Both the position numbers and the translations under genes were made by a program. The notes beneath the pieces were generated by a model that was not told the DNA's origin, did not search any database, and saw only the letters and a program-made list of their open reading frames with translations. From the NCBI GenBank assembly GCA_000165345.1, contig CM000431.1, positions 960,001-1,024,000 of the forward strand: 64,000 nucleotides of DNA, in the 5' to 3' direction. Positions 4,316-21,602 of the stretch are shown one piece after another. Position 1 is the stretch's first letter. Every line of letters begins with the position of its first letter.

Positions 4316-4906
4316 ATGTTTCGTTGTAGAATCTGTACTGAGCCACCTTTTAGCCATTTTTTTAATTTGAGAATTTTTAATGGATATTTTTCTGATGAAA
4401 GGTCTAAAAAAACCCCTTACCAACTGAGTGAAGGAGATTCTGTCTATGATACTCAATCATATGGAAGCTCACTTTTAGCTACTCCATCCAACTTAAATTC
4501 ATTTGAGCCAAGAAGCTCTGAGGAAATTAATTCTATCTGTCTCAAATGGGAAAAATGTGTACATGAGAGAGGTAGGGAATTTTGGAGGACTTCAGAGTGT
4601 TTGATGGAGGTGCTTTCAGCAATAGCCCGGGGTGTTAACAATAACGATGACCCGATTTTGGGTGATCCCCAGAGATGTATTATGTGGTATGGACAGGTTT
4701 CGGCAATTGATGGATGTCCAGTCATAAGGATGAAGAGACCAGATGAGGTTGTTGAAACTCATACATATGTAAACAGAGCGTTAGTATTCTTGTATGCTAG
4801 CGATGAATCCTTTGAGGAGTTACAATTGAAGCCAAGAGTGGCATTCAATATGGCTTGTGGGAACCGTAGATGTGTTCATTTGCGTCATATATCTCTGGAC
4901 GACTAA
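4316..4906 (+). CDS. Hypothetical Cys/His-containing protein (196 aa) of unknown function
   Basis: Clean ATG-initiated ORF. It contains CRIC near the N-terminus, CIMWYG...H..V.RAL and a C-terminal CGNRRCVHLRH. I recognise no confident homolog (see finding on possible degenerate HNH-like fold). Confidence 0.4.
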   Translation: MFRCRICTEPPFSHFFNLRIFNGYFSDERSKKTPYQLSEGDSVYDTQSYGSSLLATPSNLNSFEPRSSEEINSICLKWEKCVHERGREFWRTSECLMEVLSAIARGVNNNDDPILGDPQRCIMWYGQVSAIDGCPVIRMKRPDEVVETHTYVNRALVFLYASDESFEELQLKPRVAFNMACGNRRCVHLRHISLDD

Positions 4907-9577: not shown

Positions 9578-9943
9578 TTTTATTTATTCCTCTTCACAAA
9601 CTAAGATCTGAGTCTTGAAATTATTTTAACTTTTTTCTTTTAGATAACTTATTTCAATTTCTTGAAACTCGTCTTGTTTAAGAATAATTAGTTATTTCCC
9701 AATAATTTGTCTAATTGGACTCGCGCCATAAACAAAAAAATATAAATTCTTTTTTCTTTTAAAATTATTATTTAATTAAATGTATAATATATGATGTATA
9801 TATATTTTATATATAAATATATATAAAATATATATTATAAATTTGTACCTGAATTTTTTTTTGTGTATTATAATCTCTATAGACTATTACTATTTATTTA
9901 TTCTTCGCGTCTCATTTCTTTTATAATAATTAAAAACAAAATA

Positions 9944-9977
9944 CCGCCAAAACTAGACACGTGTATTGGCGGGTTTT
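9944..9977. promoter_or_regulatory. E2F-like sites (CCGCCAAAA; TTGGCGGGTTTT) flanking an ACACGTGT palindrome in the eL30/repeat-protein divergent promoter
   Basis: ataCCGCCAAAActagACACGTGTaTTGGCGGGTTTTatttgg. Confidence 0.4.
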
Positions 9978-10360
9978 ATTTGGAAATTACTTAAAAATAT
10001 TGCTAGTGGCGATAATATTTTACATGTAAAAAAAAAACAGAGCACACTAAAATACTTGTAAAGGGGGGAAATAGAAAATAAAAAAATTATAAATAATTTT
10101 TTAAAAATAAGAAAAGTGGTGCATTTGATTGAAAAAAAGAACTTTATTCCGAGATTATGATGTTGTTGGTGTTCTTGACTAATTCAGAATAAGAAGAAAG
10201 TGTTAATTTAGGAAGAAACCTACAGAAAGGGTCGAATTAAATATAATAAATAAGTAATTAATTATTATTGGAAGGATAATTGTGCGAAGTTTATGAAATT
10301 AGAGGTCAATACGAATTAATTTTGAGTTTTTATCATTATCATTGAATTAAAGTAATAGTC

Positions 10361-13300
10361 ATGAATTTAACCAATGAGAATATTTCAAACCAGGGCCAGG
10401 AGATTTCAAGGAATGGGAATTTTGAGATAATTGATAATGGGAAATCCGAAGATAATAGTAAGGAAATAATTCTTGAGAAATGTAGGGTAAAAGTTTCTTC
10501 AGATGGAGTTTATGAATCATTGCCAGTTGAAAGAAAAAGTATCGATGCTAAATCCAGTGAGAAGGCAAGCGATAAAATTCAAGGGGATACTGTTTTTGAA
10601 GTTTTACCTAGATCAGAGTCTAATGCAGATGCAAGTTATAATAAAGCTGGTGACTTTGTTAATGATATCGGGATTTTTGAGTCATTACCAAAATCAACTT
10701 CTGATGCTGATTATAAGTATAATGAAAGGGTGGATATTACACAAGATAGGATTGTTTTTGAAGTATTACCACGCTCTGATAATATTGTTCACTATGATAA
10801 TGACACCAGTAATGAATCTTCTATTAAAGTAAATGAAATGATTAAAAAGAAGGAGTCAGAATTGAATAATATTTTAAAAGAGCAGAAAATTGATGGAGAT
10901 ATTACTAGTAGAAATGGGAATATAGAAAATGATCCTACTTTAGGTTTAAGTATTTATAACGAAGAATCAGTTTCTCCTCCATCTGAAACTTCGATGACCA
11001 TTTTTGAGAATTTACCAATTAAGAAAGAAAATATCGATATCGATAACGAGTTTCAATCAAATTCTATTTTATCAGACAATAATATAATTGAGAATCATCA
11101 ATCAATTTTTGAAACTGCAAACTTGTCCAGATCAAATAGTTCTTCTCATATTTCTAGCTTAAAGGATGGTGAGGAAGCTGAAAGACTAACGAGTAATGAA
11201 GTGAGTGAGCATAGTGAAATTAGTAATGATGAATGCGAAAAAGATCTAAAAAGTAATTTTGAGCTTAATAATCAATTAATTACTGATTTTAATCAAGATG
11301 TAAAAACTCAAGATAAAAAAGAGCTTTCACCACAAGTTGAGAGCAAAGCAAATCTTAATATTGTTGTAAATAGTGAGAAGTCGGTCTTTGAGGTAGTTCC
11401 ATCTGAACAATCAAGAGCTGATATTGGGTATAATTCCAAAATACCACTAAGTTTTGATGAAAGGACGGTTTTTGAATCAAAGCCTGTAGCGAATTCAAAT
11501 GCAGATGTTAGCTATAATTCAAAGGTTGGTATCACAAAAGCAGAAGAAAGGTCAGTATTTGAGTCATGTCCAATTACTGATTCGAAGGCAGATGTTAGTT
11601 ATAATTCAAAATTTCAGCCAAGAAAAGACGAAAAAATTATATTTGAATCGAATCCAATTGCTAACTCGAATGCAGATGTTGGATACAATACAAAAATTGG
11701 CTTAGAAAGACAGGAAAAGTCAACTTACGAATCAATCCCTACTATCGGGGTAGTAGCAGATGTTAGCTACAAATCCAAAGCACAAACTAATTCTGGAAAT
11801 GAAAAGTCTATTTTTGAATCTGTTCCAATTTCCAATTCAATAGCTGATGTCAGTTATAATTCTAAATCACAGCCTATTAAAGAAGAAAAGGTTGTATTTG
11901 AATCAATTCCATCAGAAAATTGTAAGATAGATGTGAGTTATAATTCCAAGTTGGATTTGAAAGGACAGGAAAAGTCAGTATTTGAATCCAATCCTATGAT
12001 GACTTCCAATGCTGATGTAGGTTACAATTCAAAGCCAGAAATAAATTTGAATGAGAAATCCGTCTTTGAGTCGGTTCCATCCAATATTTCAAAAGCCGAT
12101 GTGAGTTATAACTCGAAAATAACTAATACTTCTGAGAAGTCAATCTTTGAATCGGAGCCAATAAAAAATGTTAATATAGACGTGAGTTATAATTCCAAGT
12201 TGGATTTGAAAGGACAGGAAAAGTCAGTATTTGAATCCAATCCTATGATGACTTCCAATGCTGATGTAGGTTACAATTCAAAGCCAGAAATAAATTTGAA
12301 TGAGAAATCCGTCTTTGAGTCGGTTCCAACCAATATTTCAAAAGCTGATGTGAGCTACAACTCTGTAGTAGCCAATACTTCTGAGAAGACCATTTTTGAG
12401 TCAGAACCAAGAAGGAACTCAGTGGCGGATGTAAGCTATAACTCCAGTTTGATTCCTATTTCTAAGGATGAAAAGACTGTATTTGAATCCAATCCAAATG
12501 TTGATTCAAAGGCAGATGTTAGTTATAATTCTAAAATAGAATTAAAAAAAGACGAAAAGTTTGTATTTGAGTCAAATCCTAATGTTGATTCTAATGCAGA
12601 TGTTAGTTATAATTCAAAGCTTCAGCCAAGAAAAGACGAAAAATTCATATTTGAATCTAATACGACAGTTAACTCTAAGGCAGATGTTAGTTATAATTCA
12701 AAATCTGAACCTAAAATGAACGAGAAGTCCGTATTTGAGTCCAGTCCAATTCTTAGCTCAGTTGCAGATGTTGGGTACAACACCAAAGGAGTTGGTATGA
12801 CTCAAGAAAAATCTGTCTACGAATCAGTTCCAATTAGTAAATCTAAAATAGATGCTGGCTATGATACAAAGTTGGACTTTACTCATGAAAATAATAAAAC
12901 TATATTTGAATCAAACCCATCTTGTGAATCTATTGCGGATGTTGGATATAATTCAAAGATTGAAACAAGAACAGAAGAAAAATCAGTTTATGAGTCAAAT
13001 TACGATAAAGTTTCTAAGGCTGATGCTAGATATAATTCAGATTCAAGCCAAATCTATCCTCCAGAGAAGATGGTATATGAATCAACTCCTGTTGTTGGAT
13101 TAGCTGTGGATGCAAGGTTTGCAGATCAAAACAATACAAACGAAGAGAAGCAAACAGTTTTTGTATCTCTTCCAAGGTCTGAGTCAGTTTTTGATGCAAG
13201 CTACTCGTTAAATAATGAATATAGGCAGGAAAAGACAATATTTGAGTCAGTACCCAATACAAAAGGGATCAGAATAGATGCAAGATCCAGTGATACCTCT

Positions 13301-13384
13301 GAAATAATGAATTTTCAGTCTAAGACAGTTTTTGAATCAGTACCCAAACAGTCTTATGCTGATGCAAAAAGCGGGAATATATAG
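10361..13384 (+). CDS. Large tandem-repeat protein with ~28 copies of a 27-28-aa VFESxPxxxSxADVSYNSK unit; no signal peptide
   Basis: ATG at 10361. The first ~330 aa are acidic/Asn-rich with a few degenerate repeats. From about aa 335 there are contiguous repeats with consensus EKSVFESxPxxxSxADVSYNSKxxxxx, degenerating toward the C-terminus. I recognise no homolog. Confidence 0.6.
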   Translation: MNLTNENISNQGQEISRNGNFEIIDNGKSEDNSKEIILEKCRVKVSSDGVYESLPVERKSIDAKSSEKASDKIQGDTVFEVLPRSESNADASYNKAGDFVNDIGIFESLPKSTSDADYKYNERVDITQDRIVFEVLPRSDNIVHYDNDTSNESSIKVNEMIKKKESELNNILKEQKIDGDITSRNGNIENDPTLGLSIYNEESVSPPSETSMTIFENLPIKKENIDIDNEFQSNSILSDNNIIENHQSIFETANLSRSNSSSHISSLKDGEEAERLTSNEVSEHSEISNDECEKDLKSNFELNNQLITDFNQDVKTQDKKELSPQVESKANLNIVVNSEKSVFEVVPSEQSRADIGYNSKIPLSFDERTVFESKPVANSNADVSYNSKVGITKAEERSVFESCPITDSKADVSYNSKFQPRKDEKIIFESNPIANSNADVGYNTKIGLERQEKSTYESIPTIGVVADVSYKSKAQTNSGNEKSIFESVPISNSIADVSYNSKSQPIKEEKVVFESIPSENCKIDVSYNSKLDLKGQEKSVFESNPMMTSNADVGYNSKPEINLNEKSVFESVPSNISKADVSYNSKITNTSEKSIFESEPIKNVNIDVSYNSKLDLKGQEKSVFESNPMMTSNADVGYNSKPEINLNEKSVFESVPTNISKADVSYNSVVANTSEKTIFESEPRRNSVADVSYNSSLIPISKDEKTVFESNPNVDSKADVSYNSKIELKKDEKFVFESNPNVDSNADVSYNSKLQPRKDEKFIFESNTTVNSKADVSYNSKSEPKMNEKSVFESSPILSSVADVGYNTKGVGMTQEKSVYESVPISKSKIDAGYDTKLDFTHENNKTIFESNPSCESIADVGYNSKIETRTEEKSVYESNYDKVSKADARYNSDSSQIYPPEKMVYESTPVVGLAVDARFADQNNTNEEKQTVFVSLPRSESVFDASYSLNNEYRQEKTIFESVPNTKGIRIDARSSDTSEIMNFQSKTVFESVPKQSYADAKSGNI
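11370..13380 (+). repeat. Coding tandem repeat array (unit ~81-84 bp) of the VFES-repeat gene, including a near-perfect duplication 11933-12079 vs 12182-12328
   Basis: A 147-bp stretch (gtgagttataattccaagttggatttgaaaggacaggaaaagtcagtatttgaatccaatcctatgatgacttccaatgctgatgtaggttacaattcaaagccagaaataaatttgaatgagaaatccgtctttgagtcggttcca) occurs twice, exactly identical and 249 bp apart. Flanking similarity extends further. Confidence 0.8.
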
Positions 13385-13451: not shown

Positions 13452-15605
13452 CTATTCCTCAGTTTTTTTGTCTTGGGGTGTGGGGTAAGTAACTTGTGTA
13501 ATAACCTTTGGACTATCATCAGTTTTGAGATTCTCCGATTGAATTACTTGTTGCATAGCTTGGGAAGCTTCAAAACCGAGTCTAACTGGTTCCTTATTTA
13601 CATGAAGGTAGAGTAGATAGGATGAGGGGGTAGATTCTGGATGTTCTTTTGATTCTTCTGTTTGATTTTCATCTTTGCAATCTTCCACAGTAGCTTGAGT
13701 AATTTTGTTTACAGCATGTACTGTTGTATAGTCTAATTTACCTTGAGAATCAATATTTGGCCAAACAACTGCGAAACCTTTCTTAGGTTTTATTTTGATT
13801 CCAGCATAAGGGAAGTCTAATTCTCCTCCATTTTCAACATCAGAAAGGAAAACTGAAATTGTATGAGTTCTATTATCTCCATCATGGTGTTCTTTAATGT
13901 AATCATTGACGGAATATTTGTGTACCAGGATTGGCTCCATATAAAGATTGCTAGAGTCTACAAGAATTCCAAGCCTATTTTCAATCTGTCTAATAAGAGG
14001 AGTTTCTTCTGGTTGAATACAGGCAGTTGAAGATCTACAAAAATCCTCATCTTCATCTTGTTCATTTTTATAATCTTGATCATCTGTTTTTTCATCTTTA
14101 ATTTCATCAGTTTCGGATTTCTTGCTTTCTTTTTTGGCTATTGATATCTTTGAATCCTCTAGTCTATCTTGGACAAGGGAAATAATCTCATCACATTCAT
14201 CTTGGTTTAGAGCATTTGGGATAATAAATATCTTAGGATTAACCTTACTGGCAACTATTCTCTGTAAAAGAGCAGGTTTCTTGTTTTTACTAATATCAAT
14301 TTCGGAATTGTTATTTAATGGCTCGGTACCGATTGTCGCTTGAATACCATGTTGTCTTAATAATTGAGCTGCAGCATTTAGTTGACTAGCGATAAATTGT
14401 TGTTGCTGTTGTTTGATCATTGCCTCAATCTTTGACATGTCAGTGGTTGGCTGCATAATATTTGGTTGAATAGACTCTGGAATAACGGCATTTCCCATAT
14501 TTGGAACAGCTCCAGCTCCAAGATTCACTCCTGGAATATTCATTCCTGAGATATTCAACCCTGCAGCAGTGCCAATTCCTGGAATACCACCAAGAGATCC
14601 AAGAGCTGCACTTGAAATCTGATTTGCAGTCTGTGAAGACGAACCTACATCTTTTGTTGGAATTAAATTGGGGTTTCCCAAGAATGCAGCAAGCTGAGGA
14701 GTTAGCTGAGATTGTGTAGCTGAAGCAGCTCCAACTGGTAAGTTAGCGCTTCCAGGCATTACACCAGTTACTCCTGTTGGAGCCCCTAAATTCCCTGGGA
14801 TTCCTGAAATTCCTGGAATTCCAGCAAGAGAACCCAAGGAATGCCCGGCATTGGTAGCCTGGCCCAAGTTTTGTGGAGCAACAGAAGCAGAAGCAGAGGA
14901 TGGGGATTGCTTGCTCTCAGCTGAATTAGTATTGGAAGCGGTCTGAGTATTATTTTGAAGTTCGGATAGAGCCAAAGCAATCTTTTGTTTCTGCATCCAA
15001 GTAGCCAAGTTCAAATCTTGTCCTTGAATACCACACAAATTAGGTACTCCTGCCTGCATATTTGGAAATTGAATTGGCTGTAAAGTTGGTTTCTGAACAT
15101 TTAAGCCCAAAGAAGCAAGGACATTGGGGTCTAACGCTCCAACTGGTGGAATGTTATAACTTGTGGTTGTAGAGCTTGGAATCATATTATTCAAATTTAA
15201 GGTTGCTCCCAAGGTCTGAGCTGGAATTCCAGAACTAAGACCAAGTCCAAGACTTGGAGTATTCGCTATACCGGGAGGTATCTGGTCTTTTGAAGCATTA
15301 ATTTGCATTCTCATCATAAATTGTTGTAATTGTTCCATATTCATTGCAGACATTGGGAATTGAGATGTGGGGATGTTTGTTGCTGTAACTCCACTTCCTG
15401 GCTTTCCTACTTGAGTATTATCAGCTGTAATTCCTGTTCCACTAGTTTGCCCTTGTAATAAATTATTAGTTTCTAATTTTGAAGTATCTGATTCTGAAAT
15501 AGGTACCATATTAATATAGGTACCTAATAACTTAGGTTCTGGCGGTGTGACTCCTCTAATAACATTCTTTGTTTCTTCATTAACGCTTGAATTATTTTCA
15601 GACAT
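13452..15605 (-). CDS. Prolyl 4-hydroxylase / 2OG-Fe(II) oxygenase domain protein with long G/P/Q/S/N-rich low-complexity N-terminal region
   Basis: The C-terminal ~200 aa carry P4Hc-type motifs: HHDGD (HxD), VFLSDVENGGELDFP, KKGFAVVWPN and a distal His in TTVHAVNKIT. The N-terminal ~450 aa are low complexity (GIPGISGIPGNLGAP...). There is no signal peptide. The ATG is at 15605. Confidence 0.6.
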   Translation of the reverse strand: MSENNSSVNEETKNVIRGVTPPEPKLLGTYINMVPISESDTSKLETNNLLQGQTSGTGITADNTQVGKPGSGVTATNIPTSQFPMSAMNMEQLQQFMMRMQINASKDQIPPGIANTPSLGLGLSSGIPAQTLGATLNLNNMIPSSTTTSYNIPPVGALDPNVLASLGLNVQKPTLQPIQFPNMQAGVPNLCGIQGQDLNLATWMQKQKIALALSELQNNTQTASNTNSAESKQSPSSASASVAPQNLGQATNAGHSLGSLAGIPGISGIPGNLGAPTGVTGVMPGSANLPVGAASATQSQLTPQLAAFLGNPNLIPTKDVGSSSQTANQISSAALGSLGGIPGIGTAAGLNISGMNIPGVNLGAGAVPNMGNAVIPESIQPNIMQPTTDMSKIEAMIKQQQQQFIASQLNAAAQLLRQHGIQATIGTEPLNNNSEIDISKNKKPALLQRIVASKVNPKIFIIPNALNQDECDEIISLVQDRLEDSKISIAKKESKKSETDEIKDEKTDDQDYKNEQDEDEDFCRSSTACIQPEETPLIRQIENRLGILVDSSNLYMEPILVHKYSVNDYIKEHHDGDNRTHTISVFLSDVENGGELDFPYAGIKIKPKKGFAVVWPNIDSQGKLDYTTVHAVNKITQATVEDCKDENQTEESKEHPESTPSSYLLYLHVNKEPVRLGFEASQAMQQVIQSENLKTDDSPKVITQVTYPTPQDKKTEE

Positions 15606-20282: not shown

Positions 20283-21602
20283 ATGCAAGGTGTTAATGTA
20301 AATGTTTATAATAGACAAAAGTCCTATGGAACTACATCAGCCGGACATGCTTATGGTATGACATCAGGACTTTCCATGCAAACAGTGCAAGATATGGCAG
20401 GTGTTTCTGGAAGTTATATGAATACTGATACATTTTCAACTAAAGATTATGCTGATCCAATCATATTTGACAATAAGAAATCGTTCTTTAATAGCATTAA
20501 ATTTAAAAGATTTAAAAAAAGATATGCAGGAGTTTTAGGGTTTGCTATTTTAATTTGTTTCTTGATTGGTTTTTACTTGATTTTATTTTCAGCAAAACAT
20601 CCAACTTCTAAGATATCTAAAAATAAATCTGTTTTTGAAGATGAACATATACAATTTACTCATGATGATTTTCTTGGACATAGTGGTGCTAGACATGGAT
20701 TAAATTCAAATGAAAAAGATTCTCATAGTAATGATTGGTCAGATTTTGAAGATGATTGGATTGATGAACATGATTTCTTAGAGGAAGAGATTGATGATGT
20801 TGAAGATTCTGAACATGGACATTCTCATTACGCTAAAATGATTAATGAAATGGATAGTCATCATCATGATAATGGTTCTCCTATAGAAACTTCATTTGAT
20901 GCATCGCCAAAACCACTCAAAAGTACAGATGATTTGGATACTCATAAAAATAATGAGCAAGTCATACAAACTACTGATAAACTTCCAAATGAAGTTCATG
21001 GTACAGTTCCACCAAAACCATTAACTGAGATACCTTCTCATGAAGAAAGTATTGTTTACTTCCCAAAAACAATTCATTTACTTGGAAGAATTGGTGATGA
21101 CTCAGCAGTTAATGGTAAATACAATGTAATGATGCATCCTTATCATGAAGAAAGTCCTTGGATTCATGGTGGAAGACTAATTTGGTATAAGACAGGAAAG
21201 AACTCTTCTAATAATTATTATATATTTTACGAAAAGAAGTTACATAATTGGGTTTTGACAGATAAATTTGATCTTGATAATCCAAATCCTATAGCCTTTT
21301 TACCAGATCATGGAGTAATGCCAGTTAAAGGAGTTGGTAAACATGGATGCAAAGCTCAACATTACTGGTATTTCAGAGAAAAAACTTCAGATAATTCTCA
21401 TAAACTTGTAATGGATAGATCAGTTTTAGTTACTGACAATGGAATTTTACTTGATTCACTTCCAGATCACGAACATAGAAAAGGACCATCTACAAATCAA
21501 GAAGTGATAGGACTCAAATTGCACAAGAACCAAATACATATAGATCACAAGTACTATAGTGACAAGTATTCTGGTAGACACCAAATTGATAATCCCTACT
21601 AA
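20283..21602 (+). CDS. Hypothetical type-II membrane protein (single TM helix about aa 82-104, His/Asp-rich region, Trp/Tyr/His-rich C-terminal domain)
   Basis: ATG ORF of 439 aa with hydrophobic segment AGVLGFAILICFLIGFYLILF and acidic His-rich stretch (DSEHGHSHY, DSHHHDNG). I recognise no homolog. Confidence 0.5.
   Translation: MQGVNVNVYNRQKSYGTTSAGHAYGMTSGLSMQTVQDMAGVSGSYMNTDTFSTKDYADPIIFDNKKSFFNSIKFKRFKKRYAGVLGFAILICFLIGFYLILFSAKHPTSKISKNKSVFEDEHIQFTHDDFLGHSGARHGLNSNEKDSHSNDWSDFEDDWIDEHDFLEEEIDDVEDSEHGHSHYAKMINEMDSHHHDNGSPIETSFDASPKPLKSTDDLDTHKNNEQVIQTTDKLPNEVHGTVPPKPLTEIPSHEESIVYFPKTIHLLGRIGDDSAVNGKYNVMMHPYHEESPWIHGGRLIWYKTGKNSSNNYYIFYEKKLHNWVLTDKFDLDNPNPIAFLPDHGVMPVKGVGKHGCKAQHYWYFREKTSDNSHKLVMDRSVLVTDNGILLDSLPDHEHRKGPSTNQEVIGLKLHKNQIHIDHKYYSDKYSGRHQIDNPY

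Follow-up and report, generated by a model that had tools for sequence, protein, structure and literature searches.

Repeats of a VFES motif in a probably disordered Cryptosporidium parvum protein point to an unnamed family of myzozoan proteins

We analysed a stretch of 64,000 nucleotides of the Cryptosporidium parvum genome (contig CM000431.1 of assembly GCA_000165345.1, positions 960,001 to 1,024,000 of the forward strand; hereafter the window) and focused on one gene within it. Its product, which we refer to as the VFES protein, ends in a long tandem array of units built around the residues V-F-E-S. In our favoured reading, to which we assign a probability of about 0.5, this protein is a cytosolic, intrinsically disordered and multivalent array of approximately 29 evenly spaced linear motifs that dock a partner. 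The unit marks an old and unnamed family of myzozoan proteins that predates the split between apicomplexans and dinoflagellates and that has no Pfam model. In the material that we searched, neither the family nor its motif nor its phylogenetic range seems to have been described before. Text searches of the literature for the VFES motif found no description of it, and the papers listed as naming the Toxoplasma gondii member, TGME49_205320, are omics or screen papers, at least two of which label it “hypothetical”.

Results

The VFES protein is built from a conserved tandem unit

The VFES protein has a mass of 112 kDa and is acidic (isoelectric point [pI] 4.7), with the residues S, E, N, K and D together accounting for 52% of its sequence. 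Its open reading frame (Table 1) is preceded by an in-frame stop codon five codons 5' of the ATG, and the start methionine is shared by the orthologues in other Cryptosporidium species. The limits and length assigned to this frame in a preliminary description of the window proved correct. Because positional orthologues with the same flanking genes exist, and because the neighbouring genes encode products identical to C. parvum proteins, we consider the gene both real and conserved. We regard it as a C. parvum gene of the expressed type, whose product is presumably listed as a hypothetical protein.

We identified 30 instances of the motif with a regular-expression anchor and 29 with a profile hidden Markov model (HMM) of the unit. 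This HMM was built from 150 family units and scores the C. parvum protein at 609.8 bits. These counts, with units of 27–30 residues and a mode of 28, bear out the earlier estimate of about 28 copies of a 27–28-residue unit. The main array likewise lies in the C-terminal two-thirds of the protein, as had been described, where it takes up 66% of the sequence and extends to the final residue. All 23 of its intervals measure 27–30 residues. Since the length is off by one or two residues in 10 of the 24 units, the notion of a strongly constrained period was softened. N-terminal to the main array are degenerate units (Table 1) and a further remnant near residues 246–262 (QSIFETANLSRSNSS), which was detected by the regular expression only.

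The consensus of the array is EKSVFESxPxxxSxADVSYNSK, followed by 5–7 variable linker residues. Over the 24 units, the columns of the first half are E (21 units), K (21), a variable position, V (16), F (20), E (23), S (23), a variable position, P (22), three variable positions and S (19). The second half consists of a variable position followed by A (18), D (24), V (17), S (13), Y (21), N (18), S (17) and K (17). The pattern FE[SVN].P occurs 26 times in the protein against 0.09 expected (2000 shuffles, maximum 2), so the repeat is not a product of chance. The protein contains no hydrophobic segment, the maximum Kyte–Doolittle mean over 19 residues being 0.57, and thus on hydropathy neither a signal peptide nor a transmembrane helix is apparent. 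This agrees with the previous view of the VFES protein as intracellular, and gives it a soluble character.

Selection maintains the motif and the array has expanded in C. parvum

On average, two units are only 56% identical in nucleotide sequence, and the conserved residues are encoded by several synonymous codons. The repeat is therefore neither simple low complexity, as the preliminary description had already maintained, nor a recent DNA satellite. Recent duplication is visible within the main array in a three-unit block (Table 1), and the units u8 and u11 (84 bp each) are identical in nucleotide sequence. Between units, nonsynonymous differences per site relative to synonymous ones (pN/pS) stand at 0.24 for the conserved columns, against 0.95 for the linkers and 1.07 for the variable inner columns. 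When the C. parvum protein is compared with its syntenic orthologue, the core is 69% identical, the linkers 40% and the non-repeat regions 44%. The nonsynonymous substitution rate divided by the synonymous rate (dN/dS) in the core is ~0.05, with dS near saturation. Selection maintains the motif, not the spacer.

One orthologue (P0001; 764 residues, L002:6001-8295) comes from a Logan assembly of run SRR31860986. Its locus has the order EFTUD2, L30, the VFES gene, 2-oxoglutarate (2OG) oxygenase and DEAD helicase, as in C. parvum. A second orthologue, C. andersoni cand_028250 (P0002), is placed after Nuf2, EFTUD2 and L30. In the alignment of the Cryptosporidium proteins, the four N-terminal units, the first ~7 and the last ~4 units of the array are orthologous one to one. 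The expansion in C. parvum lies in the middle of the array, which has ~10 extra units there (24 versus 14). The N-terminal unit region (residues 47–160) is the part of the C. parvum protein most like that of C. andersoni.

A collection of 15 billion proteins lacks this exact C. parvum sequence although it contains both neighbours, which fits an assembly or copy-number problem at the locus. An array with identical units breaks or truncates assemblies, as in the C. andersoni model, which stops at a contig end. The VFES locus is probably hard to assemble, and the unit copy number may vary between isolates.

Related proteins occur in apicomplexans and dinoflagellates

An exhaustive phmmer search with the VFES protein against 1.84 billion representatives gave 28 matches. 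The VFES unit is carried by 26 of them, namely two Cryptosporidium orthologues, one 84-residue Cryptosporidium fragment and 23 other proteins, and the E-values of family members range from 5e-24 to 8e-4. The matches P0037 and P0045 contain unrelated repeats and were rejected. It took the exhaustive search to reveal the family because a word-indexed homologue search is nearly blind to the VFES unit: it returned two matches for the full protein, none for the N-terminal 340 residues and two short fragments for a two-unit profile.

The 23 members outside Cryptosporidium have 3–14 tandem units with the core [ST]VFESxPxxSxA[DEH]. Among them is T. gondii TGME49_205320, found in nine strain copies, every one labelled “hypothetical protein”. 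Other apicomplexan members come from Plasmodium fragile (AK88_02458) and the marosporidan Rhytidocystis pertsovi, and dinoflagellate members from Tripos fusus, Pyrodinium bahamense and Noctiluca scintillans.

Counted over 150 units, the residues that hardly vary are V/I4 (133 units), F/Y5 (150), E6 (146), S7 (127), P9 (137), a serine (120) and an alanine (127). The alanine is followed by D/A/H, then V/A, and often by an aromatic residue or histidine. This corresponds to a family-wide core of [ST]-V-F-E-S-x-P-x2-3-S-x-A-[D/E/H]-[V/A]-x-[Y/H/W/F]. The positions that are hydrophobic throughout the family are limited to V4, F5, P9, A16 and V/A18, ~18% of the unit, and the dinoflagellate units are rich in A/S/T/Q/E. 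Outside Cryptosporidium, the spacing is 26–31 residues in 85% of the 139 neighbouring pairs of units, with a mode of 27. We defined family membership as at least three tandem core units with 26–31-residue spacing, a definition that includes the C. parvum protein.

What the C. parvum protein has in common with TGME49_205320-like proteins is the core motif, the spacing, an acidic and hydrophilic make-up and the lack of a signal peptide or transmembrane helix. It differs from the other members in that its array, with 24–29 units, is the largest seen, and in having four extra N-terminal units. In addition, its units are longer by one residue between P and S and have an “ADVSYNSK” half that is specific to the genus.

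The typical layout outside Cryptosporidium (for example P0025, P0026, P0029, P0033, P0044, P0046 and P0041/P0043) is a variable N-terminus, a Lys/Arg cluster and 4–14 units. The cluster comprises 6–10 residues and in most of these proteins directly precedes the first unit, and those from dinoflagellates close with an acidic tail, SE[YW]E[TS]D. P0025, from Tripos, carries the entire module in duplicate, which is what read-through of tandem gene copies in a dinoflagellate would give. In C. parvum no such cluster stands before the array, the nearest equivalent being IKKKESE at residues 163–169, far off, and the C-terminus (...ADAKSGNI) has no acidic tail. We regard both features as accessory to the family and not as defining it.

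One protein, P0024, is an 873-residue, dinoflagellate-like Trinity transcript from EukProt. Its N-region (~290–400) matches the N-domain of the tubulin glycylase TTLL3 (PDB 5VLQ, E = 1.9e-12) and seems to lack the TTLL3 catalytic core. A poly-Lys tract and 12 VFES units come after it. This fusion is one case and possibly a chimeric transcript. Another member contains a C-terminal fragment of UDPGP, probably through a fused gene model. The ten family members that were scanned have no Pfam domain in common.

For the C. parvum protein itself, hmmscan reported one Pfam match, to RseA_C (PF03873), with 56.7 bits for the full sequence, the cut-off being 23. The same match is precomputed for the orthologue P0001. 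The match is limited to profile positions 2–24 of 55, and one stretch alone passes. BLASTP against RseA of E. coli K-12 gave 9/25 identities with E = 0.075 over “YN..S....PE.xVF.t.P”. The RseA_C score is the sum of ~24 weak matches of “YN..S....E..VF..xP” to one short segment, and the Pfam scan gave no RseA_C match for family members outside Cryptosporidium.

The repeat is predicted to be disordered

An AlphaFold2 model of five units (residues 675–813), computed from a 66-row alignment of five-unit family windows, showed no secondary structure, with a mean predicted local distance difference test score (pLDDT) of 53.5 and a predicted template-modelling score of 0.09. The full-length model, computed with three relatives, had a mean pLDDT of 33.5 with no residue at or above 70, and contained two short low-confidence helices in the N-terminal third. 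A Foldseek search of the PDB found no significant structural neighbour; the best hits were beta-helix lyases at E = 5.3. Searches of PDB chain sequences gave no match with phmmer and none with the family profile, for which the best hit was a phage portal at E = 1. In a charge-hydropathy plot every segment falls on the disordered side, and 63% of the residues are disorder-promoting.

Modelling thus favours an intrinsically disordered VFES protein with some beta propensity, perhaps realised on binding, and an autonomous folded module for the unit is not supported by these predictions. The preliminary description had proposed a repeated structural module, naming a disordered prediction with no conserved fold as evidence to the contrary, and neither of our models shows a confident fold. 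One part of that proposal stands, in that the repeat is genuine and under selection according to the pN/pS of its conserved columns; the part that the AlphaFold2 models do not support is the fold.

The Toxoplasma relative is a cytosolic protein

The hyperplexed localisation of organelle proteins by isotope tagging (hyperLOPIT) atlas of T. gondii lists TGME49_205320 as a protein of 655 residues and 70.8 kDa with a pI of 5.31, no transmembrane domain and the SignalP class “OTHER” (PMC7670262, Tables S3 and S4). It is assigned to the cytosol with a probability of ~0.9999 by T-augmented Gaussian mixture modelling with maximum a posteriori estimation (TAGM-MAP) and of 0.9987 by its Markov-chain Monte Carlo version (TAGM-MCMC), at an exponentially modified protein abundance index (emPAI) of ~1.7–3.1 and a sequence coverage of roughly 39–50% (PMC7670262). 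The cytoskeleton- or membrane-associated scaffold that had been suggested for the VFES protein is not supported by this location, the one available, which is neither the inner membrane complex nor the cytoskeleton nor membranes. The same source gives a fitness score of +0.85 in a CRISPR (clustered regularly interspaced short palindromic repeats) screen, that is, dispensable in tachyzoite culture, and a nonsynonymous-to-synonymous ratio of single-nucleotide polymorphisms (SNPs) of 2.11 (PMC7670262).

TGME49_205320 was also detected in a cross-linking study of cytosolic extract, with a K401-K401 self-link in the peptide TVFESQKSLTSTADFR (PMC12505969). As this peptide is repeated in the protein, the “homodimer” call is ambiguous, and no inter-protein cross-links of TGME49_205320 were found for the partner prefixes that we tried. 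Its presence among the affinity binders of BKI-1708, together with several RNA-binding proteins (PMC13515763), is too indirect and was not used.

The locus and its neighbouring genes

The window is AT-rich (~30% G+C). The VFES gene and the prolyl-4-hydroxylase-like gene downstream are convergent, with their stop codons 67 bp apart, and the adjacency of the VFES and 2OG-oxygenase genes is kept in another Cryptosporidium species (L002). The 717-residue product of this neighbour shows weak similarity to 2OG-FeII_Oxy_3 at residues 561–637 only (26.4 bits, narrowly below the cut-off of 27), and its N-terminal region comprises ~450 residues of low complexity rich in G/S/P/Q/N. That the near-invariant proline of the VFES unit might be a substrate of this neighbouring hydroxylase is pure speculation. 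The other neighbours in the window are housekeeping genes, encoding dyskerin, Nuf2, EFTUD2/Snu114, a DEAD-box helicase, a PUB/UBA protein and condensin subunit 2.

The intergenic region between the L30 and VFES genes is presumed to be the promoter. It contains an inverted pair of E2F-like GGCGG elements at 9944–9973, CCGCCAAAA ... TTGGCGGG, around a CACGTG palindrome (ATACCGCCAAAACTAGACACGTGTATTGGCGGGTTTTA). This pair sits ~390–415 bp 5' of the VFES ATG and also upstream of the divergent L30 gene, and we take it to resemble the GGCGG/E2F-type promoter elements known from Cryptosporidium. An (AT)n-rich stretch lies at about 9790–9840. Two further open reading frames of the window, both on the forward strand, gave no Pfam match at E ≤ 0.001. 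The first, at 4316–4906, encodes 196 residues and has positional counterparts of 196 and 204 residues in the other two Cryptosporidium loci (L002 and L003); the second, at 20283–21602, encodes 439 residues.

Table 1. Features of the VFES gene and its surroundings, in window coordinates
Feature	Position	Strand	Description
VFES-repeat open reading frame	10361..13384	+	Complete, single exon, ATG start, 1007 residues plus stop
Four degenerate contiguous N-terminal units	10499..10840	+	Residues 47–160, e.g. GDTVFEVLPRSESNADASYN
Isolated degenerate unit	10991..11059	+	Residues 211–233, SMTIFENLPIKKENID
Main array	11375..13381	+	24 head-to-tail units of 27–30 residues (mode 28), residues 339–1007
Recent duplicated block	11916..12410	+	249 bp (3 units), 91% identical, within the main array
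Ribosomal protein L30 gene	9248..9577	-	Product 100% identical to C. parvum L30
“Prolyl 4-hydroxylase alpha subunit” gene	13452..15605	-	717 residues, 100% identical to C. parvum CPATCC_001417 / EAK88983.1
Intergenic region	9578..10360		783 bp, AT-rich, divergent between the L30 and VFES genes

Discussion

A docking array as the favoured reading

The conservation of a 16–18-residue motif in up to 29 copies implies that a binding partner, or an enzyme that modifies it, is conserved as well. We infer that the VFES protein functions through partner binding by motif and multivalency. Every conserved core would serve as a docking site and take on order, probably in the form of a short beta-strand or an extended segment, only when bound to a partner that is folded or oligomeric, and the hydrophilic linkers between the cores would be left to evolve freely. 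The whole array could then act in the cytosol as a multivalent, high-avidity tether, a scaffold or a “sticker-and-spacer” chain of a condensate. Given that the functional leads extend no further than a cytosolic location and the dispensability of the Toxoplasma member in tachyzoite culture, we present the finding as a lead and not as a discovery. The motif does offer a handle on “hypothetical proteins” in important parasites, with a range that runs from dinoflagellates to Cryptosporidium, Toxoplasma and Plasmodium.

Several points weigh against the docking array. We know of no binding partner for the VFES motif. Of the motifs compared with it, namely FFAT, PAM2, 14-3-3 mode 2, LC8 TQT, PP1 RVxF, B56 LxxIxE, SPOP, USP7 PxxS and nebulin SDxxYK, none agrees with its conserved positions. 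The cytosolic location is known from a distant relative, in Toxoplasma tachyzoites, and not from Cryptosporidium. The full-length AlphaFold2 model draws two strands per unit over the array, at pLDDT 30–53, so that folding upon assembly is possible. The alignments behind both models are shallow or built of repeat windows. The feature that a docking array explains least well is the regular period, for which a lattice binder or a folded repeat would account more readily. Typical proteins with multiple short linear motifs, such as Eps15 and the FG nucleoporins, are irregularly spaced. The periodicity of the VFES array may be largely inherited from duplication of the unit, because unit lengths vary by one or two residues at roughly the rate of neutral indels.

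Alternative readings

In one alternative, each 27–28-residue unit would contact a single subunit of a polymer with a regular repeat, such as tubulin at 4 or 8 nm or else actin, and the protein would be a lattice binder or molecular ruler. Its 24 units would span a long stretch of filament in the manner of tau, the Mn repeats of SAXO/SPM1 or nebulin. The period is regular both within and across lineages while linker sequence is free, and an extended unit of 28 residues could span ~8 nm. The poly-Lys cluster before the first unit in most members outside Cryptosporidium points the same way, and the TTLL3-type N-domain of P0024 adds weak support. We nevertheless consider such a ruler unlikely. The Toxoplasma member fractionates with the cytosol and not with the tubulin cytoskeleton or inner membrane complex classes, and the acidic VFES protein is unlike most lattice-binding microtubule-associated proteins (MAPs). 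Linker lengths vary at a near-neutral indel rate, so the period is perhaps inherited, and the TTLL3 fusion comes from a single transcript. The family profile has no counterpart among PDB chains, which include cryo-electron microscopy structures of apicomplexan cortical microtubules and axonemal microtubule inner proteins, and the Pfam models for STOP/SAXO and nebulin gave no match at E ≤ 10.

A related proposition, which we hold to be doubtful, joins docking with spacing. The unit would be an ancient myzozoan docking module whose ~28-residue spacing is matched to a periodic or oligomeric cytosolic partner, or to a modifying enzyme. The partner may be tubulin-related machinery, as hinted by the fusion to the TTLL3 N-domain. 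An enzyme acting on the invariant Glu, Ser or Pro may be a TTLL-type ligase or the neighbouring 2OG-oxygenase/prolyl hydroxylase. Were this the case, the 24-unit array would be a ruler, a processive substrate or a condensate scaffold of a kind new to alveolates.

A folded beta-hairpin or beta-solenoid domain that AlphaFold2 missed through poor sampling of the family appears to us quite improbable. The two strands per unit in the full-length model are suggestive, as are the regular period, the beta-like alternation in S-V-F-E-S and A-D-V-S-Y-N and the beta-helix proteins that head the non-significant Foldseek list. Set against these are pLDDT values that nowhere reach 70, and a fragment model that lost all secondary structure with the deeper alignment. 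Foldseek gave no E-value better than 5.3, and the ~18% of hydrophobic positions would be too few for the core of a solenoid. The A/S/T/Q/E-rich composition of the dinoflagellate units and the neutral evolution of the inner variable columns also argue against a fold.

Very unlikely, in our view, is a protein without a partner, whether as a bulk protectant or buffer similar to late embryogenesis abundant (LEA) proteins or hydrophilins, acting in bulk where alveolates that form oocysts or cysts meet crowding, desiccation or osmotic stress, or as a fast-evolving repeat of little function. The hydrophilic, acidic and disordered character of the VFES protein would suit this role. So would the dispensability and SNP ratio of the Toxoplasma relative and the different unit copy numbers between species. 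Such a protein leaves unexplained how F, E, S, P, S, A and D, each at a fixed position, could stay nearly invariant across the apicomplexan-dinoflagellate divergence, and why the core dN/dS is ~0.05.

Homology to the C-terminal domain of the bacterial anti-sigma-E factor RseA, suggested by Pfam scores above the gathering threshold for the C. parvum protein and its orthologue P0001, can be rejected with near certainty, as the match covers 23/55 profile positions, owes its score to summation over repeats, falls to E = 0.075 in pairwise comparison and is absent from the members outside Cryptosporidium. RseA_C occurs in single copy, as the periplasmic part of a membrane protein of bacteria, and its biology is unrelated to that of the VFES protein. 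The label is a false annotation that could propagate. The unit falls within no curated family, in line with the preliminary description, which did not recognise one.

Comparison with known repeat systems

The nebulin repeat (PF00880, SDxxYK) gave no match at E ≤ 10, and the nebulin-like “ADxxYxxK” is restricted to Cryptosporidium units and does not extend to the family. With alveolins, the VFES family has in common that it consists of alveolate-specific repeats, and EKSVFESxP bears a superficial “EK-x-V-x-E-x-P” resemblance to repeats of the EKIVEVP type. The alveolin repeat has a period of ~12 residues in comparison with 28 for the VFES unit, and alveolins are insoluble and cortical, unlike the cytosolic Toxoplasma VFES protein. 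No Pfam alveolin match was found at E ≤ 10.

A parallel in form is provided by the 31–32-residue repeats of tau/MAP2, the Mn modules of SAXO/MAP6 and the 32-residue repeats of Toxoplasma SPM1, which have an aromatic or proline core and variable linkers and are disordered when unbound. VFES units are similarly ~30 residues long, arranged in tandem, and composed of a conserved core and variable linkers. They differ in that the VFES protein is acidic rather than basic and its Toxoplasma relative cytosolic. Pfam, PDB sequence and profile searches gave no sequence link to these microtubule-lattice repeats. For the SAXO/MAP6 (STOP) Mn module in particular, there was no Pfam match at E ≤ 10 and no PDB chain.

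In its possible mode of action, the VFES protein resembles the DPF repeats of Eps15, the FG nucleoporins and LC8-binding TQT arrays. In all of these, many short aromatic motifs are separated by freely evolving hydrophilic spacers and have no autonomous fold. The VFES motif is unrelated to theirs in sequence, its core is longer at ~16–18 residues and its spacing is far more regular. The VFES family counts as a new motif family of an established general type, that of disordered proteins built from tandem linear motifs.

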